Below are positions 671 to 52,690 of a stretch of DNA of 64,000 nucleotides, in pieces (the first letter of the stretch is position 1; every line of letters starts with the position of its first letter). The position numbers and the translations under genes were made by a program. Source of the DNA: a virus; IMG/VR virus record IMGVR_UViG_3300017963_000200, positions 74,639 to 138,638 of that record; one strand, given 5' to 3'. The notes beneath the pieces were generated by a model, which was given only the letters and a program-made list of their open reading frames with translations, did not search any database and had not been told where the DNA came from.

Positions 671-1114
671 ATGACCGAAAACGACAAAGACAACGACAAC
701 GTGCGCAACATCTACGAGAAGCCGGAGGAGGGTTCTCAAGTTCCGGAATCCGAGGATCCCGAAGATGGTGCCGAGGAAGTGTCCGAAGATGTCCCCAAGG
801 AGGATGCTCCGAAGCGAGATCCGCAACGTTTCATCCAACTGAACCGGTTGCACGCCGCCGAAGCCCAGCTGGCCGGCCTCAAGGTCCAGGAGGCCGAGAA
901 TCGGATCCGGCAGGCCAACCGCGAGCTGGAGCAGGCCCAGAAGGACCTCAAGCAGGCCCAGAAGGACCATCGGGAAGCCCAGATGGAGGGACAGCAGGCT
1001 GCGGACCGGATTCTCAAGGAGATGGCGCTCTCTTCTCAGAACGTCATCAATGTCGACAACAAAGTTGTGGTGCCCCCCAAGGGGCAGGAGTTCGTGGTCT
1101 TCTTGAATGACTGA
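671..1114 (+). CDS. Acidic coiled-coil protein (148 aa). The alternative start at 521 would overlap the preceding gene.
   Basis: ATG 671 preceded by CTGGAGGATGAG. The Asp/Glu-rich N-terminus and the heptad-like repeat QANRELEQAQKDLKQAQKD are read from the translation. The stop overlaps the next gene's ATG (ATGACTGA). Confidence 0.5.
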   Translation: MTENDKDNDNVRNIYEKPEEGSQVPESEDPEDGAEEVSEDVPKEDAPKRDPQRFIQLNRLHAAEAQLAGLKVQEAENRIRQANRELEQAQKDLKQAQKDHREAQMEGQQAADRILKEMALSSQNVINVDNKVVVPPKGQEFVVFLND

Positions 1115-4100
1115 TGATCTGAAAGAAAGCTTCATTCCGACGCGCAGGGCTGCCGCCAACCAGTTCCAGCCTCGGCTCATTAACGCCGACCCCTCCTATC
1201 ATCGGAGGGAGCTGGCGGCGAGCGTGTTGCCGAAGGGTGCCACCTTGGCGATGACGCCTTCGCGTCGCGAAGGTTCTGGCTACTTCTCTGGGATGCCATA
1301 CGGCGTCACGCCGTATTCCGGTGGCGGAGGTGGAGGGGGCAGCTCGCTGTACCACATGCAGCGGCCTTACCTGCCGCAGGTCGAATCCCCGGACCGAGTT
1401 CAGTATCCGAAGAGCCGGGAGGAGGCCAACGAGGACTGGCGACTGTTCCATCGTGTCGATCCGATCTTCGGATGCGCGATAGACATGTACGCCGAGATGC
1501 TCGTCAGCGACTTCGACATCGTGGTCGGGGACGAGAAGAGCCACGAGATCCGGGACACGCTGGAATACATGTGTCAGGTCACGAACCTGATGGATCGTCT
1601 CCGGTACATCGTTCGCGACTACTTGGTCTTCGGCGAAGCCATCCCCCACTGTTTCTTCGATGACGATCTGGGCATCTGGACCTACATCGGGATGCATGAT
1701 CCCGACTACGTCGAGGTCATCGACGCTCCCATCGTCAACATGGACCCAATCCTCAACTTCGTGCCGGACGAGAGCATCCGGCGGCTGCTTTCGGATGGAT
1801 CTCCGGAATCGAGGGAGTTCCGGTCGAGGTTGCCCGCCGAGTTCGTGGCCAAGATCATGGCGCGGCAGAAGATCAGGCTGAGTCCGCTCAACGCCACGTT
1901 CATTCCGAGGAAGCTCCATCTTCATGAAGTTCGCGGAACGAGCCTGGCGAGTCGGATGTGGCGCATCTTCATGGTCGAGGATGCGGTCTACAACAGCACC
2001 ATCGCCACCTATCGAAGACACGCGGCCCCGGTCAAGGTCATCAAGTTGGGTGATCCCCAGACCGGGTGGATCCCGGCTCCCGGTGCCGAGGTGAAGTTGC
2101 TGGAGATGTTGAACCGCGCCGAGGCCGACCCGCAGGCGTGGATCATCTACCACTACGGCATCAACTTCGAGGCCTGGGGCACGACCGACCGCGCCATCTC
2201 GATTCACCAACAGCACGACGTCATCGAGAAAGTGAAGTTGCTGGCGCTGGGTCTTTCGAAGAGCTTCATGACCGGCGAAGTGACCTACGCTTGTAGCCTC
2301 TCTCGCACTCCTGTGCGGAAGGGGGATTCCTCATACGTAGGGGTTGAAGAGATTCGGAAGGGCGATGCTGTAATGGATCGCTTCGGGAAGTCTCGTAAGG
2401 TAGTTGATGTCTTGGAGTATCCGGCTCCGGACGAGATGGTCAAGATCACTTTATACGGTGACCGCGAGCTTACTCTTACTGATTACCACGAGCTTCCTGT
2501 ATTCGCTCGACCACATAAATGCTTGTGTGGTTGCGGGGAGGATCTTGGGGACGAGAAGGGAACAAGTCAAGGACGACGGCAATGGCGCTCCTTCTCTCCG
2601 CAGCATCACAAGAATACCCTCCGTGCAGGTCGAGACCGCGAGTGGATCGACTACAAGCACGGGGACGCTGTCATTGCGTCTTTCCCCAGTGAGCACTATC
2701 CTTATCAACGGTTGCGCGCTGACGAAGTTCGTATGGGGGACTGGTTGATGATCCCTCGCGGATTCGAGGTGTCCGCTACTCCTTCTTCAGAGGAAAATTT
2801 GGCTAAGGCCAGGTTGCTGGGATACTACGCGGCGGAGGGTTCGACGGAGTTCACGGTTTCCGATTCTGGAAACAAGACGACGAGGTTCTCGTTCGGGAGA
2901 GTGGATTGTGCCAAAGAAGAGTTCTACGTTGCGGATGTGGCCGAGCTGTTGGAATCTTTTGGTCACCTCTGTACCATCCAGCGTTCCTACAAGCAGCCTG
3001 ACTCGGAGGTTCCATCTTTCACGGTGTATGTTCCCACGACGGCAACCCCGCTGAGCACCTATCTGGAAGAGAATGGAGGAAAAGGGAGTGGCACGAAGCG
3101 ACTCTCGTCCGAGGTGATGGGCTGGAACCTGGAGTTGAAGAAAGAACTCCTGAAAGGCATGTATCGAGGCGACGGCTATCTTTTCAAGAATGGTAATCGC
3201 CTCGATGTAGTATACACTACTACCTCGACTCAACTGATGCGACAGCTCGAAGTTATTCTCGCTCAGTTGGGGTATTCATGCTACGTGCATACCTCTCCTG
3301 AGCGCAGGGACGAGAAAGGGTACGTCCACCAGGAATGTCATTATATTACTTGTTCCGGAAAGCAAGCTCGACCTCTTGCTGAGCTGGTTTGGTCGGAGGT
3401 TTCTGCTGTCTGGGATGAGGTAGATTGGACTGGGTTCGAGAAGGATAACCATCAAGGTGAACGTCACGAGGTTTTCGTAGACGACGAGTACATCTATCTT
3501 CCGGTCAAGTCGGTAGAGACTGTGCAGGTGGACAAGAAGCTCAATCCTTACGTTTATAGTCTGACGGTACAGGAGACGAGCAGCTATACATTGAACAACG
3601 TCGCATCGTTCAATTCGGCCAAGAGTGGTCTTCAGGTCTTCTTGCGCCGGCTGCTCTCGCTGCGTCAGTTCCTGGAGAACTTCTGGCTCTATCCGAAGTT
3701 CTTCCGCCCCATCTCCGAGATCAACGAGTGGTTTACCGCGAAACCCTCTGAGGTGCATCATCGCTACCGCATCAAGCGGACCGCACAGGAGATCGAAGAG
3801 GAGAACATGATCCTGATGCCCACTCTCAAGTGGCGCAACAAGCTCGATCCGGGCGTGGATCAGGATCTTCTCCAGGCCTATGCGATGCTGGCGAAGTTTG
3901 GCATCCAGATCTCCGATTCGACCGTTGCCGGGGCCGTGGGTCTCGACGCCACCGAGGAACTCGAAAAGTCCATGAAGGAGTTCAAGTCCAAGCGCGAGAA
4001 GATCGAACAGACCCTCGGCAAGGACCTGGCTCGGGAATTCCTCCAGCAGACGCAGCAGGCCGGCGCTGGAGGCGCGAAGCCGCCCGGAGGACCCGGAGCA

Positions 4101-4253
4101 GGGGCCAAGCCTCCTGGAGCAGCCGGAAAGCCTTCTGGAGGCATGGACGACGTTTCGAAGCCGCCGGGGAGCGCTCCTGGTGGGGGAGAGGCCTTGGACG
4201 AGGGAATCGAACGTCCGGCAGGCGGTGGTCTGCCGACTGGTGTCGGTGACTAG
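1107..4253 (+). CDS. Putative portal protein (608-aa host protein) interrupted in-frame by a 441-aa intein. It ends in a Gly/Pro/Ala-rich low-complexity tail.
   Basis: 1048-aa ORF. The position immediately upstream of a Mu F/gp7-like head morphogenesis gene, the absence of a Walker A motif (which argues against terminase), and the disordered C-terminal tail (QQAGAGGAKPPGGPGAGAKPPGAAGKPSGG) fit a portal. The portal call is inference from gene order and size. Confidence 0.55.
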   Translation: MTDDLKESFIPTRRAAANQFQPRLINADPSYHRRELAASVLPKGATLAMTPSRREGSGYFSGMPYGVTPYSGGGGGGGSSLYHMQRPYLPQVESPDRVQYPKSREEANEDWRLFHRVDPIFGCAIDMYAEMLVSDFDIVVGDEKSHEIRDTLEYMCQVTNLMDRLRYIVRDYLVFGEAIPHCFFDDDLGIWTYIGMHDPDYVEVIDAPIVNMDPILNFVPDESIRRLLSDGSPESREFRSRLPAEFVAKIMARQKIRLSPLNATFIPRKLHLHEVRGTSLASRMWRIFMVEDAVYNSTIATYRRHAAPVKVIKLGDPQTGWIPAPGAEVKLLEMLNRAEADPQAWIIYHYGINFEAWGTTDRAISIHQQHDVIEKVKLLALGLSKSFMTGEVTYACSLSRTPVRKGDSSYVGVEEIRKGDAVMDRFGKSRKVVDVLEYPAPDEMVKITLYGDRELTLTDYHELPVFARPHKCLCGCGEDLGDEKGTSQGRRQWRSFSPQHHKNTLRAGRDREWIDYKHGDAVIASFPSEHYPYQRLRADEVRMGDWLMIPRGFEVSATPSSEENLAKARLLGYYAAEGSTEFTVSDSGNKTTRFSFGRVDCAKEEFYVADVAELLESFGHLCTIQRSYKQPDSEVPSFTVYVPTTATPLSTYLEENGGKGSGTKRLSSEVMGWNLELKKELLKGMYRGDGYLFKNGNRLDVVYTTTSTQLMRQLEVILAQLGYSCYVHTSPERRDEKGYVHQECHYITCSGKQARPLAELVWSEVSAVWDEVDWTGFEKDNHQGERHEVFVDDEYIYLPVKSVETVQVDKKLNPYVYSLTVQETSSYTLNNVASFNSAKSGLQVFLRRLLSLRQFLENFWLYPKFFRPISEINEWFTAKPSEVHHRYRIKRTAQEIEEENMILMPTLKWRNKLDPGVDQDLLQAYAMLAKFGIQISDSTVAGAVGLDATEELEKSMKEFKSKREKIEQTLGKDLAREFLQQTQQAGAGGAKPPGGPGAGAKPPGAAGKPSGGMDDVSKPPGSAPGGGEALDEGIERPAGGGLPTGVGD
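2292..3614 (+). mobile_element. Intein with a LAGLIDADG homing endonuclease domain, inserted in the portal ORF.
   Basis: The N-terminal Cys at 2292 sits in the sequence TYA|CLSRTPV...GDAV. A block-B-like T-x-x-H motif (LTLTDYHELP) is present. There are two LAGLIDADG motifs (LLGYYAAEGS and LLKGMYRGDGYL). The C-terminal block YVYSLTVQETSSYTLNNVASFN is followed by the +1 Ser at 3615. The flanking extein sequence is continuous in frame. Confidence 0.75.
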
Positions 4254-4256
4254 CAC

Positions 4257-5333
4257 ATGGGTGAGAACTATCGTCAGATCGTCCAGGAGGTTCTCAACTC
4301 CTATCCGGACGATCAGCCTCTTCTGAAGTTCGATGACTTCTTCGTCGGAGGAGCCTACAAGCAGCAGTTGCCGGACTTCGCGGCGAGCCAGAAGCCGCTT
4401 ACCTGGCAGCTGACAGGCATCTCCGACGTGGAAGCTTTGAAACGCGGTGAAGTACAGCAGGAGGTCCTTGTCGAAGCCGAGAACGATCTTGACGTATTCG
4501 TTCCTGAAAAGGTGGATCTCCTGGACGAGGAGCAGTACGAGAAGTTGTTCATGGCAATGAAGTCGCGAGCTTTTCGAGTCTTCAACTTCTTGGACATCAA
4601 GTCTGCCGCTCTCGGAGACATCCCTATCAAGGAGAAGGATCTCGTACTGGACGAAGACGACTACTACATCATGGACTACCTGCGCGGAGCGGTGTCGGAT
4701 TACTACGCCGTCGCCTCCATCGCCACGTTGCTCGCCTACGAGAACATGGGGATCTACACTGTCCGGTTCCGGCAGCAGGATGGTTGTCCGATCTGCAAGG
4801 CCCTCGACGGCATCTTCTTCGAGACGCGGTCTCTCATCAGCTTGCTGGGAACGGGGGATCACGTCTCGCACCGTTACTGCGATTGCCAGCTCGTTCCCGT
4901 CATCTTCCGGGAGATGTATAGCGGCCCGTTGGAGGGCTATCTGAACTTGGAAGAGACGCGGCATGGACCGGTCACGATCTTGAACGCGCCGTTGGAGTTG
5001 GAGGTCGAGCTGCGGCAGCTGTCCGAACAACTCGATGTCGACTGTATCGAGTTCGTCGACATGAAAGATCACCTTCGGGAGAACCTGGAGGTCACGGATA
5101 TCGAGGGCGTCGTCGCCATCCTGGAAGACGGGGTGCTCTCGGTCCACAACAGCTACGTCGGGTCTCACGGTCCGCTGGACTTTCTCCGTGAATTCGCCGA
5201 AGCGGACAGTCTCCCGGATCGGATTTCGCCAGCTTCCCTCGAAGATGCCGAGATCTACTTGATGGGGGGAAGGCGCGTGGCGAAGAAGGACGGGAAGTAC
5301 TGGGATCCCGAGACCGGCGAGCGCTTGAAATGA
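4257..5333 (+). CDS. Head morphogenesis protein of the Mu F / SPP1 gp7 family (putative minor head protein).
   Basis: 358 aa. C-P-I-C-K-A-L-D-G followed by H-x-x-C-D-C-x-x-V-P, which resembles the H..CRC..P signature of the Mu F-like domain. The position directly after the portal gene is typical. Confidence 0.5.
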   Translation: MGENYRQIVQEVLNSYPDDQPLLKFDDFFVGGAYKQQLPDFAASQKPLTWQLTGISDVEALKRGEVQQEVLVEAENDLDVFVPEKVDLLDEEQYEKLFMAMKSRAFRVFNFLDIKSAALGDIPIKEKDLVLDEDDYYIMDYLRGAVSDYYAVASIATLLAYENMGIYTVRFRQQDGCPICKALDGIFFETRSLISLLGTGDHVSHRYCDCQLVPVIFREMYSGPLEGYLNLEETRHGPVTILNAPLELEVELRQLSEQLDVDCIEFVDMKDHLRENLEVTDIEGVVAILEDGVLSVHNSYVGSHGPLDFLREFAEADSLPDRISPASLEDAEIYLMGGRRVAKKDGKYWDPETGERLK

Positions 5334-5861: not shown

Positions 5862-6779
5862 ATGTCGTTCTGGAAAACAGCAAGTATCTCCGTCCTCGGC
5901 GTCCACGCGGATCACGGCTGGAATAAGGTCGCGACCGAAAAGTTCGCCTCGTTCTATATGGACGGCGGCGAGATTGACATCGAAGCCGCGCTCGACACCG
6001 TTGCCGACGCCTACCGGATATCTCGCGATCCAGATGATTATCTCCTGATTCCAACGCGGGCCAACTCGACGGATCGCCCGAACGAGAACATGGACGGTTG
6101 GCGCAGGGGAGAGCTGCTCCGGTTCGATCCTCGCATCGGACGCCGGGTCTATCAGACCTATCTCCTCAAGCCGCATTTCGTGAACCATAACGCCTCCAAC
6201 TTCGCCCTGTCTCGGGGAGTCATCCTCGACGCGCACTACAACGACGTCAATCCGGCCAACGACATGGTCAAGGAAGCGGTCTTCGAGGCGACCGGTGAGA
6301 TTCCCGATCGCGATGAGTTCGTCGAGACCTTGATCGCGATGGATACCACCAAGGATCCTCGCCTGGCGGAAGCGTACAAGAACGGTTCCGTCGACAAGTT
6401 CTCGATGGGTTGCGACGTGGAGAGCACCGAGTGCTCTGTCTGCGGCAAGACCGCGATGACCACCTTCCAGTTCTGCGATCACGTCCGCGCCAAGCTCTCG
6501 AAGCGTGCCTATCCCCTCGACGGTGGTGGCACGCGACGAGCTTTCGAGTGGTGCAACGGTACGATCTTCGCGGAGGAATCCGCCGTGGATGATCCTGCCG
6601 ACAAGGATGCCATCGTCCAGGAGGGTCTCTTGCAAGCGGTTGCGAGCGGTGCGCGCGTGTTGACGGCTTCCGAAGTCCGTCAGATCACGGCGTTCGTCGC
6701 GAAGCATCCGCGCGACATTCCGGAGCCCCTCGCTGCCTTGATCACATCGGCCCTCCAGAGGGCGTCAGGAGTGAACTGA
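5862..6779 (+). CDS. Hypothetical head-module protein (305 aa) with a C-x2-C ... C-x-H cluster.
   Basis: Long ORF between the head morphogenesis and scaffold genes. CSVCGKT...FCDHV suggests metal binding. No protease motif recognised. Confidence 0.5.
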   Translation: MSFWKTASISVLGVHADHGWNKVATEKFASFYMDGGEIDIEAALDTVADAYRISRDPDDYLLIPTRANSTDRPNENMDGWRRGELLRFDPRIGRRVYQTYLLKPHFVNHNASNFALSRGVILDAHYNDVNPANDMVKEAVFEATGEIPDRDEFVETLIAMDTTKDPRLAEAYKNGSVDKFSMGCDVESTECSVCGKTAMTTFQFCDHVRAKLSKRAYPLDGGGTRRAFEWCNGTIFAEESAVDDPADKDAIVQEGLLQAVASGARVLTASEVRQITAFVAKHPRDIPEPLAALITSALQRASGVN

Positions 6780-8602
6780 TGACGCAACATCGACTCCAGC
6801 TTCTCAACACCGTCAAGGAGCTTCACGAGGCCGGGACGGTCAAGCTTTCCGATGCCGACAAGGCCAGGATCGAGGCGGAGACCGCCGATCTGATCCAACG
6901 TTCGCTCTTGAACTCGAAGCTGGCGATGAAGGCTCCTCCGGGTTTTGACGCGCTGCTCGAAGAGCTGAAGAAGGCCGAGGCCGCCGATGCCGCCTTCGAG
7001 ACCGTGGTGAAGTTCTTGGATTCTCTCGAAGGCATGGAAGTTGAGTCCGAGGAAGAGGAAGAAGAGGAGGAATCCGAAGAGGAGGAATCCGAGGCGAAGA
7101 ATGGGGGGCCGGAGATGGGCGAGAAGAAGCCCGAACCTCCGAAGCCGAAAGAAGAAAAACCCTTCCCTCCGAAGCCGAAAGACGAGAAGAAGCCCGGCCC
7201 ACCCGAGGGCGGTCCGCCCAAATCCGGTCTCCCGAAGCCCGGTGAACCCAAGGAAGACGAGATGAAGGAAGCGCGGCAACAGCTCCTGCGCCGAGCCCAG
7301 GAGCAGGAGACCCCCGAAGGCGGCATCAGCGATCTCCAGGAGAAGAAGCGCGAGAAGGCCGAAGCGCCGTCCGCTGACGAAATGGGCGTCGGGGACATGA
7401 CGCCCGTCGCCAGAGCCGCGAAGATCAAGGTCGCGCTGACCAAGGATCGTAACCTCGTAGCCTCTCATCAGGATTTCGGTCCCGTGTTCTATGCGATGCC
7501 GGCCCCGGAAGTGAAGCGTGACGAGAACGCGCTGCGCCGGTTGGCCAACAAGGTCTTCGGGATCGCCCTCTACCAGGGCTTCAAGGAGGCCGCGCGCCTG
7601 TGCAAGGCGAAGCTGCTCATTGAAGCCGGGGTCGATGACGACGTCGTCACCGACTCCCAAGTGGAGGTGCCCCCGGCCACGCAGGGCATCACTGCCGATG
7701 AGGAGACCGATACGCGAGAGAAGCCAGAAGAAGGTGATTCCTCGGCGCTGCCGGGCATGGAGGTCGACACGCGCGAGAAGCCGCCGACCGTTTCCGACAC
7801 CAAGACCAAGATGATCACGAGCAAGCGCAAACGCATCGCGTTGGCGAGTGCTCGTCATCGCGGCAAGGATATTCTCGACGAGGCCGAGGGCGTCACCCAG
7901 ACGCACAAGCCCTCGAAGCCGTCCGGCGATACCACCGATGACGCCGAGTTCAACAGCCAGGAAACGCCTCCTGCGCCTGCCGGTGACGTGCTCGCCGACG
8001 CGGACAACGATATTCGGACCACTCAGGCGAACATGAGCGAGCTGTACAAGCACCGGCTGGAGAAACGCCTCGCCGCCGAGAAGGAGCAGTTCGTCCGGAA
8101 GTTCACGCGGGCGCTCAGGATCGCGGGTACCCGAATGCTGCTCAACCACGAAGAGCATCCGCTCAAGGTGGCAGCGGTCGATGTGCTCACCGGGGAGGAC
8201 ATCGAATTCAGCGACGGCGAGCGCTATACCGGCATGGATGTCGGGACGGCGGTCGAGTTGACCGAGCTGATCGCTTCCGAAGGTCATGAGAGCTTCATGA
8301 CCCGGCTGCTCTCCCGAGCTGCCGATCTGCTCGAAAAGGACGATCAGTATCTCGCCGATGCGGAGACCGATCTTCAGGATCAGGCTCCTGTCCCGGTGGG
8401 AGACGGTGGTCAAGCGACAGCGAGAAAGCGTTCCTCGCGGAATCGGCGTTCGGCGCGCGTGCGCCGGGAAGCCGCCGAGGGGAACTTCGGTAAGGAAAAC
8501 GGAGCACCTGTTTCCAGCTCCAAACAAGCTTCTGGCGGTATTCGTGACGCCCTCAGTGGAGGCACCCTGCTCGGTCGTAGGATCGGCAGGCTTCAGGGCT
8601 GA
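6779..8602 (+). CDS. Putative scaffolding protein (607 aa, highly acidic, poly-Glu and PPKPK(E/D)EK repeats).
   Basis: Contains EEEEEEEESEEEESE and the repeats KPEPPKPKEEKPFPPKPKDEKKPGPP. Predicted largely helical and disordered. The position immediately upstream of the capsid genes is typical of scaffolds. 1-nt overlap (TGATG) with the preceding gene. Confidence 0.5.
   Translation: MTQHRLQLLNTVKELHEAGTVKLSDADKARIEAETADLIQRSLLNSKLAMKAPPGFDALLEELKKAEAADAAFETVVKFLDSLEGMEVESEEEEEEEESEEEESEAKNGGPEMGEKKPEPPKPKEEKPFPPKPKDEKKPGPPEGGPPKSGLPKPGEPKEDEMKEARQQLLRRAQEQETPEGGISDLQEKKREKAEAPSADEMGVGDMTPVARAAKIKVALTKDRNLVASHQDFGPVFYAMPAPEVKRDENALRRLANKVFGIALYQGFKEAARLCKAKLLIEAGVDDDVVTDSQVEVPPATQGITADEETDTREKPEEGDSSALPGMEVDTREKPPTVSDTKTKMITSKRKRIALASARHRGKDILDEAEGVTQTHKPSKPSGDTTDDAEFNSQETPPAPAGDVLADADNDIRTTQANMSELYKHRLEKRLAAEKEQFVRKFTRALRIAGTRMLLNHEEHPLKVAAVDVLTGEDIEFSDGERYTGMDVGTAVELTELIASEGHESFMTRLLSRAADLLEKDDQYLADAETDLQDQAPVPVGDGGQATARKRSSRNRRSARVRREAAEGNFGKENGAPVSSSKQASGGIRDALSGGTLLGRRIGRLQG
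7136..7182. repeat. 17-nt direct repeat CCTCCGAAGCCGAAAGA occurring twice (7136-7152 and 7166-7182), encoding the PPKPK(E/D) repeats of the scaffold.
   Basis: Identical 17-mers 30 nt apart, read directly from the sequence. Confidence 0.6.
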
Positions 8603-8638
8603 ACGACACGGGATCGCCCCAACTGACGGAGGATAGAG

Positions 8639-9409
8639 ATGGCCTTCTCGCCGCGTATGGAAGCCTTCAGGGTTTCGAGCCGAGCAATCGGCATCGACCT
8701 GATGCGCTCCCAGTACACGCGGAACCTGGGCACCTACGTCGCCAACGCCGCGACCACCTTCCGCGCGGGGATGCTCGTGTCCCTCAACGCGAGTCAGGAG
8801 ATCGTGGTGTGCGACGGCACGACGCCTTTCGGTTTCGCGAAGTACACCAAGGCGCAGACGCTGTACGCAGCTGTGACTGCCGAGCAGATCCAGCTGAACG
8901 GCGTCATCGCCACCAACCTCGCCCACGGCAACCTCTGGACGCCGGGCGCAACCGGCGGCGTGCGCGTGACCGACATCACGGGTACGACCGTCTACACCGA
9001 GGGTGCCGGTAACGACTACACGGTCAACTATGTCAACGGACAGGTGACCCGCGTGGCGACCGGTACCATCGGCGACGGTGACTATGTACTGGTGGATTAC
9101 CAGTATCAGGTCACCGAGCAAGAGCTGAAGTTCGAGGGGCGCAACTTCTGGAACTTCATCGACGACGTCACCATTCAGGGCGACAAGATCACCGTGATCA
9201 ACGACTGGTCGTTCATCTGGACGACCCAGTACGATCCGGCCCAGACCTACGCCGTGAACGACGTCCTGAACGCCGGTATGTCGGGTGCCTCCAAGGCCGG
9301 TCTCGTGACCAAGGGCGGTGGTGGTGCCTACATCGGCAGGGTCTTCCAGGTCCCGACAGCGGACGATCCCTTCCTGGGCATCCGTTACGTCGGCGGCATG
9401 GTCAGCTAG
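8639..9409 (+). CDS. Hypothetical beta-rich structural protein (256 aa), possibly a head decoration or accessory protein.
   Basis: RBS GGAGGATAGAG. Positioned between the scaffold and the putative capsid gene. No motif recognised. Confidence 0.45.
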   Translation: MAFSPRMEAFRVSSRAIGIDLMRSQYTRNLGTYVANAATTFRAGMLVSLNASQEIVVCDGTTPFGFAKYTKAQTLYAAVTAEQIQLNGVIATNLAHGNLWTPGATGGVRVTDITGTTVYTEGAGNDYTVNYVNGQVTRVATGTIGDGDYVLVDYQYQVTEQELKFEGRNFWNFIDDVTIQGDKITVINDWSFIWTTQYDPAQTYAVNDVLNAGMSGASKAGLVTKGGGGAYIGRVFQVPTADDPFLGIRYVGGMVS

Positions 9410-9424
9410 GAAAGGAGGAGGACG

Positions 9425-10735
9425 ATGAAGAATCCGTACAAGCGAATCGCCAAGAATCGTCGCCCCGTTTCCTCGCGGACCGCCCGCAGGACCTCGGAGC
9501 GTCAGCGTCCGGAACGTCCGGAGCGCAAGCCTGCCGCGCAGCCGCGTGACCGTCGCCAGTCGGAGCGCCGCCCCGAGGGGAGCGACGACAAGCGTCAGCG
9601 CTTGGCCGCTCGTCCGCGTGAGCGGTTCGGGTCGCGGAGGGACGAGGGTCTCTTCGAGGGAGGCGGCTCCTTCAACCCGCAGCGGTACGACCATCCGTCG
9701 AGCCGTCGGGCGACCGCGAGCCAGACCGACCGGCGCATGTTCGACAAGCGCGGCGAGGTCAACGCCTACGACAAGCGGGACGCGATGGTGCAGGTCAACG
9801 AGCTGCTGAACGAGATCACCAAGAAGAACGCCAAGGCGCTCTCGTTCTATCGCCCGGACACCGAGTCGAGCATCTCCAAGGAGGCCCGGCGCGACATCCT
9901 CGGCGCAGCGCTCACCGACCCGACCGGCCAGGGCTTCCACATCGTGGGCCAGGAGCTGGCTCTGCCGATCAAGGCGATCCTCGACTACGAGGGCTTCAGC
10001 CGGAAGATCTACCGGGTGCGGAAGCTGGCTCAGGCCGAGCTGTTCCGTCTCCCGGTCGACATCCGGTCGACCGCCTGGGTCGTGGGTCAGGACGGCCAGT
10101 CGCCCGAGTCGCGGATCAAAACCAAGTGGATCACGCCACCCGAGTGGAAGGTCACTTCGTTCCCGAGCATCGACATCCAGGACATCTACCAGATGAACTT
10201 CGATGTGCTCGACCGCGCTCAGGACACGGCCCGCCAGGAGATCGAGCTGCAAGAGGACAAGGCCGGCATCAGCCTGATCGACGAGGCTGCGCAGACCGAG
10301 AACGCCGTGACGACCTTCGCCACGCTGGGCATCGCCGCGTTCGAGGACGTGCGGTTCCAGGTCGAGCGGCACCGCCTCATGGTCGAGAACTTCCTGATCT
10401 CCCGCGCCGAGCTGTCCGACATCGTGAAGACGATGTCCGCAGCCGTGGATCCGGTCACCGAGCGTGAGCTGATCCTGGCCGGGTACATCGGGAACATCCT
10501 GAACGCCCAGATCCTGACCGCCGCCGGTACCGGCGTCGAGGAAGTCATCCCTCCGGGGACCTTCTACGCGACGACCGGCGCGGACTACATGGGCGAGATG
10601 GGTGTGCGGATCGAGCTGTTCAGCGAGCCCTACAACAAGTACTCCCACCAGGAGACGGTGAAGGGCTGGGCGTTCATCGAGATGATCGGTTTCGCCATCG
10701 CCAACAGCCGGTCGTGCGCGAAGGGCCAGAAGTAG
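9425..10735 (+). CDS. Putative major capsid protein (436 aa) with an unusual Arg/Ser-rich N-terminal extension of about 120 aa.
   Basis: Strong RBS AAAGGAGGAGG. Downstream of the scaffold. The C-terminal ~320 aa has a size and alpha+beta pattern compatible with an HK97-fold capsid protein. The capsid call is inference from position. Confidence 0.45.
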   Translation: MKNPYKRIAKNRRPVSSRTARRTSERQRPERPERKPAAQPRDRRQSERRPEGSDDKRQRLAARPRERFGSRRDEGLFEGGGSFNPQRYDHPSSRRATASQTDRRMFDKRGEVNAYDKRDAMVQVNELLNEITKKNAKALSFYRPDTESSISKEARRDILGAALTDPTGQGFHIVGQELALPIKAILDYEGFSRKIYRVRKLAQAELFRLPVDIRSTAWVVGQDGQSPESRIKTKWITPPEWKVTSFPSIDIQDIYQMNFDVLDRAQDTARQEIELQEDKAGISLIDEAAQTENAVTTFATLGIAAFEDVRFQVERHRLMVENFLISRAELSDIVKTMSAAVDPVTERELILAGYIGNILNAQILTAAGTGVEEVIPPGTFYATTGADYMGEMGVRIELFSEPYNKYSHQETVKGWAFIEMIGFAIANSRSCAKGQK

Positions 10736-10756
10736 CGAGAGCTGCTTGATGGGTGC

Positions 10757-10814
10757 GCCGGGAGGCGCTGAAGGTCTCCCGGCCCATCCTGGGCCATAAC
10801 CCCGCGAGAGCGGG
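10757..10814 (+). promoter_or_regulatory. Two GC-rich stem-loops immediately after the putative capsid gene: GCCGGGAG-N11-CTCCCGGC at 10757-10783 and CCCGC-GAGA-GCGGG at 10801-10814. Possible transcript-stabilising or attenuating elements.
   Basis: Perfect 8-bp and 5-bp inverted repeats read from the sequence. Neither has a downstream U-run, so they are not classical intrinsic terminators. Confidence 0.35.
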
Positions 10815-11010
10815 AGGTGGGGTAACACCCTGGCACACCACGAGGAATCTGGATGTGGGTAATCGAGTTCCCGTCCTGGGGCCGGACGATACCGTTCTGT
10901 CCTATACCCACCCTGCCAGGGCAAGGAAACTGGTCAAGAACGGAAAGGCGGTCGTCGCCAACGGACGACCTTTCATCATTCGGTTAAACCGAGATCCCAG
11001 GGAGGACAAA

Positions 11011-43695: not shown

Positions 43696-44568
43696 ATGAT
43701 AATTAGAGATAAAGAACGAGAAGTTCGAACCTGCACTAAGTGTATGGAAGTAAAGTCTTTTTCTGAGTTTTCTTACTCAAGAACTGGTTTTGCTAATCGA
43801 AAGAGTATGTGTAAGAATTGCATGTATGAACATCGTCGCGAATACATGAAGAATTACAAGAAAAAGAAACTCAAGACTTTTGTTGAGGTTACATCTGGAG
43901 TTAAAACATGTACGCATTGCAAAGTAGAGAAACCGGTAACTGAATTTAGAAAACTTGTTACAGTTAAGGACGGTCGTCAGAGTTGGTGTATCCGATGTAC
44001 TCAGAAGCAGAGTCATGAGCGGGATAAACGGTTGAACTTCCCCCCTCGCAAGGAAGGGGTAAAAAAGTGTTCTCGATGTGAACAAGTCAAGTCTGTACGA
44101 GAATTTAGTCCGCATAAATACCATAGGGATGGTTTAGCTTCTTGCTGTAAAAAATGTGATGGACAACGTAGTGTATGTCGCAACAGACGTGATCCGCAGT
44201 CGAGATTGGCTTCAACTTTACGGAGTCGTTTGTTGGTAGCGTTGCAGTATCGTGATGGGACGGGCTATAAAGGAGGATCTGCCGTAGCAGATTTAGGGTG
44301 TACAATTCCAGAATTGAAGAAATATTTGGAAGATCAGTTTTATCCGCATCCCCATACTGGGGAATTGATGAACTGGGATAATTGGTCTAACTCGGGATGG
44401 CAGATCGATCATATAAAGCCTCTTTCTTCTTTTGATTTATTGGATCGGGCACAATTTTTGGAGGCATCTCGGTATACAAATCTACGACCTTTATGGTTGG
44501 TAGATCATATTAGGAAAACAAAGCGGGAGCAGAAAGCTCTGAAACTTTCTGAGGAGAAAAAATCATGA
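43696..44568 (+). CDS. HNH homing endonuclease (290 aa) with three N-terminal Cys4 zinc-ribbon repeats, encoded in an AT-rich island.
   Basis: Three repeats of C-x2-C-x3-K-S/P-x3-EF-x8-12-C-x2-C. The C-terminus GWQIDHIKP...NLRPLWLVDHIRK is a canonical HNH motif. GC content is about 40% against about 60% in the flanks. Confidence 0.7.
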   Translation: MIIRDKEREVRTCTKCMEVKSFSEFSYSRTGFANRKSMCKNCMYEHRREYMKNYKKKKLKTFVEVTSGVKTCTHCKVEKPVTEFRKLVTVKDGRQSWCIRCTQKQSHERDKRLNFPPRKEGVKKCSRCEQVKSVREFSPHKYHRDGLASCCKKCDGQRSVCRNRRDPQSRLASTLRSRLLVALQYRDGTGYKGGSAVADLGCTIPELKKYLEDQFYPHPHTGELMNWDNWSNSGWQIDHIKPLSSFDLLDRAQFLEASRYTNLRPLWLVDHIRKTKREQKALKLSEEKKS

Positions 44569-51118: not shown

Positions 51119-52690
51119 ATGAATGTCGTTCTCCTCATCGACGGGAACCCTCTGCTCTGGCGCGCGGCCTACGCCGGCTACGGAACCGGCGACAGCTCTC
51201 TGGCGAAAGGGGTCTTGAACTACTTCTACTCGATGATTCACAAGTTCCGACCGCAGGACCTCGTGGTGTGCTGGGACAAGGGAATGTCCTGGTGGCGCTC
51301 GCAGCTCTACCCCGATTACAAGGCTCACCGGATGGAGAAGAAACGGGAGAGCGACATCGATCTGGAGATGGTCCAGGAGCAAGCAGGCTACGCCAGGAGG
51401 TACTTCGAGGCCCTCGGGGTGCGTCAGGTCATCTTGCCTGGCGTCGAGGCTGACGACGTCCTCTCGTGGCTCTCAGAGCACTATCTGAAGCGCATCGAGC
51501 ACTTCCCGGATTGGAAGATCGTCATCGCTACCGGGGATCAAGACCTGTGGCAGCTCGTTCGGGAAGATGGGCGCATCCTCATCTGGGATCCTCAGAAGGA
51601 ACTTCTAGTAGATCATTCAAAGGTAGTGGAGGTCCTTGGTGTATCTCCGGAACGCATCCCCGATCTGAAGTCGATGATGGGGGATGCTTCGGACAATTTG
51701 CCGGGGGTGAAGGGGATCGGCCAAAAGATAGGCTCGAAGTTGCTCCGCGAGTACGAGACGTTGGGCAATATCATGAGCCTCGATGAGAACCTCATCAAGG
51801 AACTGAAGAAGCGCAAGACGACGGCGCGGATCCTGGATGCCGATGACGTTCTTGGGGAGACGTACCGTCTTGTGAAGTTGCCCGCTATCCGCGAAGCCGC
51901 GCATTGCCTTTCTTCACAGGACCTGAAGCTTCTTCGAGAGCAGCTCGGGCAACCGCTCGACCGGGATTCCTTCCGACTCCAGGTGATGGCGGAGCGCATC
52001 GGGAAGTCGTGTGCGAACATCGAGCCGTTGGTTCCCACGTCGGCTTCGGATCTGACGGTCATGGTGGATGAAATGGAAGTATATCTATCGAATCAGACCT
52101 GGACCGATCTTCGAGAGGTCGACTGGGCGATCCTCGGATGCAACCAGTGCGCTCTCCGGGCCGACACGGGCGAGAAGGGGCCGACTCTTCCCCAAGGTCA
52201 TCAAGGGGTCGACATCATGCTCGTGGGCCGTAACCCTGGCCAGCAGGAGCTGGAGAACGGTGTTCCGTTCTGGCCGGATGCGCCGGCAGGAGGTCGGCTC
52301 AATCGCTTCTTGGAGGTGGTTGGTCTGGAGCGACACGAGTGCTGGATCACCAACGCGTGCAAGTGCTACTCCCAGGCCAATCGTCCTCCGACATGGCCCG
52401 AGGTTTTGGCGTGCTCGCGGTATCTCCGGGCCGAGATTGACCTCGTCAAGCCCAAGCTTATCATCTGTTTCGGTAACGAGGCGATGAGTCTCGTCACTCC
52501 ATACCGGAGCCGGGTGACGAAGCACTGCGGCGAGATTCTGGACAAACCCCGCAGTGTGATCGGTGACATCGACGCGCTGGTGGCAATCAGCGTACATCCG
52601 TCGGCGGCGTGTCGGGGTGGTCAGGGAGAATCGAACATGCAGTACGCCGAGACTAACGTCAAGGCCCTCCTGGACAAGGTGACCCAATGA
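51119..52690 (+). CDS. Fusion protein: 5'-3' exonuclease (FEN/Pol I N-terminal family, PIN + H3TH) joined to a C-terminal family-4 uracil-DNA-glycosylase-like domain with Fe-S cysteines.
   Basis: N-terminal LLIDGNPLLWRAAYA, YKAHR, EADDVLS and ATGDQDLWQLV match the FEN consensus. H3TH GDASDNLPGVKGIGQKIGSKLL. C-terminal GCNQCALR, GRNPGQQELENGVPFWPDAPAGGRLNRFL (like the GEAPG...PF.G.AG..L motif A of UDG family 4), NACKC, and VHPSAA (motif B, HPS). Confidence 0.75.
   Translation: MNVVLLIDGNPLLWRAAYAGYGTGDSSLAKGVLNYFYSMIHKFRPQDLVVCWDKGMSWWRSQLYPDYKAHRMEKKRESDIDLEMVQEQAGYARRYFEALGVRQVILPGVEADDVLSWLSEHYLKRIEHFPDWKIVIATGDQDLWQLVREDGRILIWDPQKELLVDHSKVVEVLGVSPERIPDLKSMMGDASDNLPGVKGIGQKIGSKLLREYETLGNIMSLDENLIKELKKRKTTARILDADDVLGETYRLVKLPAIREAAHCLSSQDLKLLREQLGQPLDRDSFRLQVMAERIGKSCANIEPLVPTSASDLTVMVDEMEVYLSNQTWTDLREVDWAILGCNQCALRADTGEKGPTLPQGHQGVDIMLVGRNPGQQELENGVPFWPDAPAGGRLNRFLEVVGLERHECWITNACKCYSQANRPPTWPEVLACSRYLRAEIDLVKPKLIICFGNEAMSLVTPYRSRVTKHCGEILDKPRSVIGDIDALVAISVHPSAACRGGQGESNMQYAETNVKALLDKVTQ

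Follow-up and report, generated by a model that had tools for sequence, protein, structure and literature searches.

A gene near the start of a stretch of viral DNA raises the question of why a protein that resembles a phage structural component should be interrupted by 441 additional residues, and of what those residues are. The stretch, called the window in this report, comprises 64,000 nucleotides (positions 74,639 to 138,638 of IMG/VR virus record IMGVR_UViG_3300017963_000200), and the gene lies at 1107-4253 on its plus strand. A preliminary description, made from the letters alone, had proposed that a LAGLIDADG intein at 2292-3614 splits a putative portal gene, and had left room for a host protein other than a portal. 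We conclude, with a probability of about 0.9, that a large, uncultured tailed phage carries here, in its portal gene, a mobile class 1 intein that consists of a Hint domain and a two-motif LAGLIDADG endonuclease.

An in-frame insertion in a portal gene

The list of open reading frames (ORFs) gives the gene 1048 codons plus a stop, and the insert (2292-3614, plus strand) takes up codons 396-836, which is exactly 441 codons and in frame. Its translation, CSLSRTPV...YTLNNVASFN, is preceded by ...GEVTYA and followed by Ser (SAKSGLQ). Upstream lies the N-extein (1107-2291, plus strand), whose 395 residues end in ...SKSFMTGEVTYA, and downstream the C-extein (3615-4253, plus strand), whose 212 residues begin SAKSGLQVFLRR... 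and are followed by the stop codon. The two exteins read through as one host protein, as first proposed, but the length then given was one residue too high: the joined protein has 607 residues rather than 608, with ...GEVTYA-SAKSGL... at the spliced junction.

The joined exteins were used as a query, which returned 205 homologues, and the best 120 of these were taken for alignment. In the resulting MAFFT alignment of 122 sequences, the extra residues of the query form one 441-residue block after extein residue 395, and 59 of the best 120 homologues are approximately 600 residues long, free of inteins and contiguous across the junction. One intein-free allele (P0003) is 83% identical in amino acids to the joined exteins over 100% of their length. 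The contig that encodes it (L002) aligns with the window at 75% nucleotide identity over 1717 nucleotides, and 1323 bp are missing exactly at GCT|TCG, so that the empty allele reads ...ACCTATGCT|TCGGCCAAGTCC... around the junction. Because intein-free homologues and this DNA junction define the ends of the insert, its boundaries are fixed by homology as well as by motifs, and the in-frame insertion originally described is confirmed. In the homologue alignment, the extein residues on either side of the junction, SK.F..GE.TYA|SAKSGLQVFLRR, are among the most conserved of the protein.

The composition of the insert is foreign relative to that of the exteins. Its G+C content is 0.523, compared with 0.60 and 0.62 in the N- and C-terminal flanks, and its G+C content at third codon positions (GC3) is 0.585, compared with 0.805 and 0.741; by G+C content, the insert ranks among the lowest 3.7% of 1323-bp windows. 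The insert is not an accident of assembly, since the same precursor occurs on an independent public metagenomic contig of 146.8 kb (L001), which is 99.99% identical to the window and carries the same gene call, and since three contigs, the longest of 188.5 kb, carry a near-identical precursor (P0001, with 99% identity across the exteins).

The host protein is a tailed-phage portal protein. The joined exteins match PHROG 16240 ("portal protein") with E=4e-77 in a single contiguous stretch, residues 102-558, which is how exteins of one protein were expected to align with a portal family. Pfam gave no match to the joined exteins, and PF06074 was found in only a few of the homologues. Searches of PDB sequences with the extein profile likewise retrieved no portal at E<=1. 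We therefore relied on a predicted fold for the exteins, as we did for the intein (see below), because sequence-only searches of PDB failed for both. An AlphaFold2 (AF2) model of the joined exteins, built from 73 sequences, has a mean predicted local distance difference test score (pLDDT) of 72.5, with a core at 85-95 and disordered termini. The best 50 PDB matches found by Foldseek with this model are all portals, including those of phage lambda (gpB), T4 (gp20), G20c, phage 812, P74-26, T7, HFTV1 and a gene transfer agent (GTA).

Comparisons with phage genomes agree with this assignment. By tblastn, the nearest relative of the portal is in Virus Rctr197k (45% identity), and annotated portals are found in Bacillus phage G (28% identity, E=1e-41), Xanthomonas jumbo phages, PaBG, phiRSL1 and BcepSauron. 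A nucleotide search of phage genomes matched Virus Rctr197k only, with 15% of the gene aligned at 68% identity. The portal gene lies upstream of genes for a prohead protease (5862-6779; phrog_18299, head maturation protease, E=5e-34) and the major capsid protein (9425-10735; phrog_2522, major head protein, E=4e-58), which is the arrangement of a head-morphogenesis module. The family match, the fold and this synteny lead us to reject the idea of a host other than a portal.

The elements of secondary structure predicted for the portal come in the order that is canonical for such proteins. Residues 285-306 form a stem helix and residues 310-349 a small clip of mixed alpha/beta structure; a second stem helix (366-380) leads through a conserved loop (381-393) to a helix of 38 residues (394-431), after which come wing strands and, at the C terminus, crown helices. 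In the AF2 model, the insertion point follows the loop 381-393, and Ser+1 opens the helix 394-431. From this order we infer that the insertion point falls where the tunnel loop would end and the long wing helix would begin, at a place predicted to line the DNA channel. A precursor left unspliced would then not be expected to assemble into a functional portal, and splicing would be kept under selection.

The C-terminal tail of the portal (window positions 4065-4250, spliced residues ~545-607) is of low complexity, rich in Gly, Pro and Ala, and modeled with pLDDT below 50. It is conserved across homologues in the form of AKPPG repeats.

Splicing residues, endonuclease and predicted fold

The motifs listed in the preliminary description, namely the N-terminal Cys, the T-x-x-H block, two LAGLIDADG motifs and a C-terminal ...SFN followed by Ser, are all present. 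We assessed their conservation in two sets of sequences. The first aligns nine inteins that share the portal site of the window intein, here called site-c. The second consists of 131 relatives of full length that an exhaustive profile search recovered, hereafter the clade; totals for individual positions vary with gaps in the alignment.

Block A (2292-2315, plus strand) starts with the nucleophile Cys1 (TGT, 2292-2294), a position occupied by Cys or Ser in the site-c family and by Cys in 117 clade members, Ser in 2 and an alignment gap in 12. In block B (2478-2489, plus strand), which reads T63-D-Y-H66, the Thr at B:7 and the His at B:10 are invariant in the site-c alignment and in 127 of 127 aligned relatives. 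Blocks F and G (3552-3614, plus strand), which read VYSLTVQETSSYTL NNVASFN, are placed by the site-c alignment and the clade statistics; they supply Ser423 (F:4), Ser430 (F:13), Ser439 (G:5), Phe440 (G:6) and Asn441 (G:7). The terminal Asn is found in all 128 scored relatives. The first C-extein residue, Ser+1 (TCG, 3615-3617), is invariant in the site-c family, and the clade has Ser in 103 cases, Cys in 26 and Thr in 2. Thus all indispensable class 1 positions (Cys1, His66, Asn441 and Ser+1) are present and conserved in the family.

Positions that usually assist the late steps of splicing differ from the canonical pattern. The canonical helpers are Asp at F:4 and His at F:13, positions described as less conserved (PMC4031507), together with a penultimate His at G:6; the window intein has Ser423, Ser430 and Phe440 instead. 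At G:6, the clade has Tyr in 43 members, Phe in 36, His in 29 of 128 scored and Leu in 10, and at F:4 it has Asn in 102, Ser in 11 and Asp in 9. His occupies F:13 in 108 of 128 relatives, whereas close site-c relatives of the window copy have S, N, A, H or E there. The earlier suggestion that the penultimate Phe makes this an atypical splicing variant was overstated: the residue is unremarkable both for the clade and for phage class 1 inteins, which commonly lack a penultimate His and still splice (PMC5050341). Splicing without this His is also attributed to Chen 2000, as cited in PMC5050341 and PMC4031507. Because such exceptions are documented in these two papers, the missing His at G:6 is no bar to membership in class 1. 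Less common is that the same copy also has Ser at both F:13 and F:4.

If the window intein follows the established class 1 pathway (PMC4031507), the portal gene would be translated into a 1048-residue precursor in which Cys1, aided by Thr63 and His66, would attack the Ala395-Cys1 peptide bond. The N-extein would then be moved onto Ser+1, cyclization of Asn441 would release the intein, and an O-to-N shift would yield a normal peptide bond. Expected products are a 607-residue portal, for which SFMTGEVTYASAK is the predicted tryptic peptide across the spliced junction, and a free intein of ~50 kDa. For annotation, this means that the 1048-residue product should be named a portal precursor and that the mature portal has 607 residues.

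The central part of the insert has the features of a homing endonuclease. LAGLIDADG motif 1 (2814-2840, plus strand), LLGYYAAEG at residues 175-183, contains the putative catalytic acid Glu182, which is Glu in 120 of the 131 relatives. Motif 2 (3147-3176, plus strand), LLKGMYRGDG at residues 286-295, contains its counterpart Asp294, which is Asp in 122 of them. Pfam LAGLIDADG_3 (PF14528) matches the insert in two stretches, the better of which is residues 283-365, with E=3.4e-13 and a score of 50.1 bits against a cutoff of 22.5. The endonuclease is probably active.

Between block B and the endonuclease is a linker (residues 72-145; 2505-2726, plus strand) that contains C77-L-C79-G-C81 (2520-2537) and H105/H106 (2601-2609). 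Most relatives (~100 of 131) share the motif P-R-x-C-x-C-G-C...[F/Y]...H, and C77, C79, C81 and H105 are kept in a similar number (~100/131). The segment occurs in full-size site-c inteins and is gone from versions of 135, 260 and 284 residues. By analogy with PI-SceI, whose DNA-recognition region also follows block B, these three Cys and one His may form a small zinc-binding module for DNA recognition. We know of no description of such a C-x-C-G-C...H linker motif, although no literature search was aimed at it.

An AF2 model of the insert, based on the site-c alignment, has a mean pLDDT of 81.6 and a predicted template-modeling score (pTM) of 0.84. In this model, the insert shows the classical architecture of large inteins, with a two-motif LAGLIDADG endonuclease set into a Hint domain. 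The best Foldseek matches in PDB are several crystal forms of PI-SceI (E=1e-19 to 1e-15), followed in order by the TliVMA and PhoVMA inteins, by PI-TkoII and PI-PfuI, by the free-standing LAGLIDADG endonucleases I-DmoI and I-SceI, and by mini-inteins and Hedgehog Hint domains. The endonuclease part matches I-DmoI (E=1e-6, target-length template-modeling score (TM-score) of ~0.7) and I-SceI; the splicing part matches the Hint domains of Prp8, DnaB and Hedgehog, with E=1e-3 to 1e-4 for mini-inteins and Hedgehog. A sequence-only search of PDB with the intein found nothing better than a phmmer match to PI-SceI at E=0.78.

The window intein therefore has an architecture in common with yeast VMA1 PI-SceI and the archaeal VMA and PI-PfuI inteins (PDB 1vde, 1jva, 1lws, 7qsu and 1dq3), which are its best structural matches (E=1e-19 to 1e-13, query-length TM-score 0.47-0.57) and use the same chemistry of Cys1, terminal Asn and a +1 nucleophile. 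It differs from them in its host protein, in having only 11-17% sequence identity, in the penultimate Phe instead of His, in Ser at F:4 and F:13, and in the conserved C-x-C-G-C...H linker motif. Motifs, the LAGLIDADG_3 match and this fold, the last two far better than chance matches would be, uphold the view that the insert is a bona fide LAGLIDADG intein.

Could the insert instead be a Hint or endonuclease insertion of another kind, whether an intein of class 2 or 3, a domain of the bacterial intein-like (BIL) type, or a free-standing LAGLIDADG gene that became fused in frame? The weak Pfam Vint/Hint matches (E=0.03) and the presence of BIL2 and Hedgehog Hint domains in the Foldseek results (E ~1e-3 to 1e-4) could be taken to suggest this. 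However, the latter matches involve only the small Hint part, and are ~15 orders of magnitude worse than those to endonuclease-bearing inteins. Class 3 inteins, of the mycobacteriophage Bethlehem DnaB type, resemble the window intein in their association with phages, in noncanonical blocks F and G and in a small polar residue at G:5. As defined in PMC5050341 and PMC4031507, however, they lack a nucleophile at position 1 and need Trp at B:12, Cys at F:4 and Thr at G:5, whereas the window intein has Cys1, Leu68, Ser and Ser. Moreover, a free-standing endonuclease would not be flanked by Hint halves or end in Asn-Ser exactly at the breakpoint of the host protein. Class 2, class 3, BIL and free-standing endonuclease identities were thus rejected on residue tests and fold matches, and we give an insertion of this kind hardly any weight.

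Several observations weigh against a functional class 1 intein in the portal channel. First, the usual late-step helpers are all missing from the window copy (Ser at F:4, Ser at F:13 and Phe at G:6), and Asn cyclization could consequently be slow, or could rely on another residue. Second, curated models of intein sequences score below their thresholds: Pfam Intein_splicing reaches 22.6 bits against a cutoff of 35.8, Vint 14.4 bits against 27 (E=0.03), and TIGR01445 17.5 against 24.5, and Hom_end is sub-threshold as well. Third, AF2 models the linker that contains the Cys/His motif with low confidence (pLDDT 49-57), and the assignment of the insertion point to the tunnel loop is based on predicted secondary structure combined with generic portal topology. 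The Pfam comparison suggested as a check of the insert thus gave a mixed outcome, with LAGLIDADG_3 above its cutoff and Intein_splicing, Hom_end and Vint below theirs. NCBIfam likewise gave only weak matches, to the intein parts of intein-containing proteins, with intein_Nterm below its cutoff. Because these curated Hint and intein models fall short of their thresholds, the Hint assignment rests on the fold and the catalytic residues. Several relatives of the window intein exceed the curated Pfam cutoffs; the window copy is divergent in sequence, enough so to escape curated Hint models.

The same two observations, the noncanonical residues at F:4, F:13 and G:6 and the low scores of Hint models, are what one would expect of a decaying intein that no longer splices, in which case the portal would be a pseudogene on a defective phage or the insert would be tolerated as a permanent portal domain. 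This is very unlikely. The frame of 1048 codons is unbroken, none of the four indispensable positions is missing or varies within the family, and the endonuclease acids are kept, unlike in the visibly degenerate copies P0068 and P0122. In addition, a near-identical gene is found on several long contigs, and a permanent 50-kDa insert is implausible at the place where this essential protein is most conserved. Finally, splicing has been shown for inteins that lack the penultimate His (PMC5050341, and Chen 2000 as cited there). The window intein is, in our assessment, very likely competent for splicing, because its indispensable positions are kept and because the portal is essential in a phage that has been seen repeatedly. 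Under that reading, the joint absence of Asp at F:4, His at F:13 and His at G:6 offers a natural test of Asn cyclization without its usual helpers.

Portal inteins in related phages

Alleles of site-c differ widely in what they carry. They include full-size inteins of 431-447 residues, two inteins with decayed endonuclease motifs (284 and 260 residues), a 135-residue mini-intein and many empty sites. This patchy distribution is the signature of a homing cycle. In such a cycle, the endonuclease of the free intein would probably cut intein-free portal alleles at GCT|TCG during co-infection, and the intein would be copied in by repair.

The distribution also bears on whether the phage has co-opted the intein as a slow or conditional post-translational timer of portal availability, with the lost His helpers tuning its rate. 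The window copy does lack His at both F:13 and G:6, the conserved Cys3-His cluster might bind a metal, and the penultimate residue of a mycobacteriophage intein sets the level of unspliced precursor, for which a regulatory role has been proposed (PMC5050341). Nevertheless, the free variation of F:13 among close site-c relatives resembles drift more than tuning, and the intein is dispensable, given intein-free alleles in close phages with a portal that is 83% identical. The pattern of empty, degenerate and mini-intein alleles is, moreover, that expected from a selfish homing element. We regard a timer as improbable, if somewhat less so than a decayed intein, and retain the interpretation of a mobile class 1 intein.

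Portal inteins have been described before. Six are known in cluster C1 mycobacteriophages (Kelley et al. 2016, PMC5050341), and a 2025 survey of actinobacteriophages found five separate groups, indicating several insertion events (bioRxiv 10.1101/2025.01.02.630785). The preliminary description held that portal inteins are far less common than those of terminases or polymerases. They are indeed rarer than terminase inteins in these published surveys (PMC5050341; bioRxiv 10.1101/2025.01.02.630785), but they are an already described type and are frequent in the portal family of the window. Like the window intein, actinobacteriophage portal inteins belong to class 1, have LAGLIDADG endonucleases and conserve the penultimate His poorly. 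The window phage differs in lineage, as a large phage that is uncultured and closest to Virus Rctr197k, and its portal family has many more occupied intein sites than actinobacteriophage portals do. By tblastn, the C1 portal is 20% identical to the window portal (E ~1e-4) over the first half only, which is too distant for reliable mapping of sites. A tblastn search of 50,697 phage records with the intein gave no match in any actinophage record and no cultured-phage counterpart; it yielded one weak match, in a gene of Eggerthella phage LE2-3 annotated as "tRNA synthetase."

Inteins of phage terminase large subunits, DNA polymerases and ribonucleotide reductases follow the same selfish-element logic as the window intein. 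They occupy conserved nucleic-acid-handling sites in essential genes, home in co-infection and are patchily distributed, with empty alleles (PMC5050341, PMC4760082). Unlike these hosts, the portal is a structural component of DNA translocation that has no enzymatic active site, and the window intein is located at what is predicted to be a loop of the DNA channel, not in a motif of an ATPase or polymerase. The window intein is accordingly a further case of portal inteins that are already known, ordinary in kind, and nothing here alters the general view of inteins as selfish homing elements.

The extent of insertion in this portal family became apparent from profile searches. A word-indexed protein search with the intein returned 3 matches, and an exhaustive profile search with site-c inteins returned 7418 at E<=1e-3. 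In 78 of the best 144 new proteins from the latter search, the extein belongs to the same portal family. The clade is characterized by the Cys3-His linker module together with Asn or Ser at F:4 and an aromatic G:6 residue. Inteins with exact ends were mapped onto the portal profile, which gave at least 15 exact insertion points (93, 98, 101, 108, 177, 292, 295, 297, 305, 306, 343, 346, 385, 391 and 395 in window extein numbering).

Among the 120 closest homologues of the joined exteins, 31 carry an intein, at extein position 306, 343 or 395. In a biased sample of 202 portal proteins, 101 have no intein, 70 have one, 23 have two, 7 have three, and a single protein of 2444 residues (P0125) has four. 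Two full-size inteins are only four extein residues apart in P0138 (1446 residues), in which residues 356-1175 hold inteins at the equivalents of window sites 391 and 395, with junctions FLHGE|C...GTYN|STYS|C...AVFN|SMKGN. Another protein, the fragment P0121, carries inteins at both site 306 and site 395.

We tentatively propose, at somewhat short of even odds, that this portal family of uncultured large phages is an exceptional and previously undescribed intein hotspot, occupied by a single diversified clade, of which the window copy is one instance with an uncharacterized arrangement for Asn cyclization. Such an arrangement would be needed because every canonical helper of that step is missing from the window copy. 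With no fewer than 15 insertion points and as many as four inteins in one portal, the family constitutes a large natural data set on the movement of inteins to new sites within one protein. Occupied sites cluster in predicted stem, clip and tunnel-loop regions, which bears on the preference of inteins for DNA-contacting surfaces.

Portal residues 307 (2025-2027) and 344 (2136-2138) are Ala in the window, and intein-bearing alleles at those two sites have an obligatory Ser at +1. An intein at site 306 or 343 of the window portal could not splice, because the +1 residue would be Ala and not Ser. Intein-free homologues have either Ala or Ser at both residues.

Clade relatives also reside in glycosyltransferase, radical-SAM and methyltransferase proteins. 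Three close relatives (P0168, P0170 and P0177) lie in group 1 glycosyltransferase domains, some of them fused to radical-SAM or methyltransferase domains. Such hosts are unusual, as the inteins usually reported lie in replication and packaging proteins.

Other features of the window

A six-frame search of the window found no further inteins of the clade. A different kind of mobile element is suggested at 43696-44568 (plus strand), the stretch of lowest G+C content in the window (0.46), with a GC3 of 0.35 compared with ~0.75-0.8 in neighboring genes. Its product of 290 residues has repeated CxxC pairs and a C-terminal HNH-like pattern (...DHIKP...N...DH...), and its only Pfam match is to Stc1, below the cutoff. 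These features suggest that the product is probably a free-standing homing endonuclease.

Also downstream of the portal gene, as the next-but-two ORF, is a gene at 6779-8602 that encodes an acidic, scaffold-like protein of 607 residues, rich in Glu, Lys and Pro and matching no family. It likely represents the scaffold. Long antisense ORFs overlie the head genes on the minus strand, at 6680-10924 (1414 residues), 1047-2216 (389 residues) and 3276-5168 (630 residues). We consider these to be artefacts of high G+C content and not genes, because of the pattern of G+C content by codon position and the PHROG matches on the plus strand. Finally, a single ORF at 51119-52690 (plus strand) combines an N-terminal half that resembles flap endonuclease (FEN)-like 5'-3' exonucleases with a domain of the uracil-DNA glycosylase superfamily.

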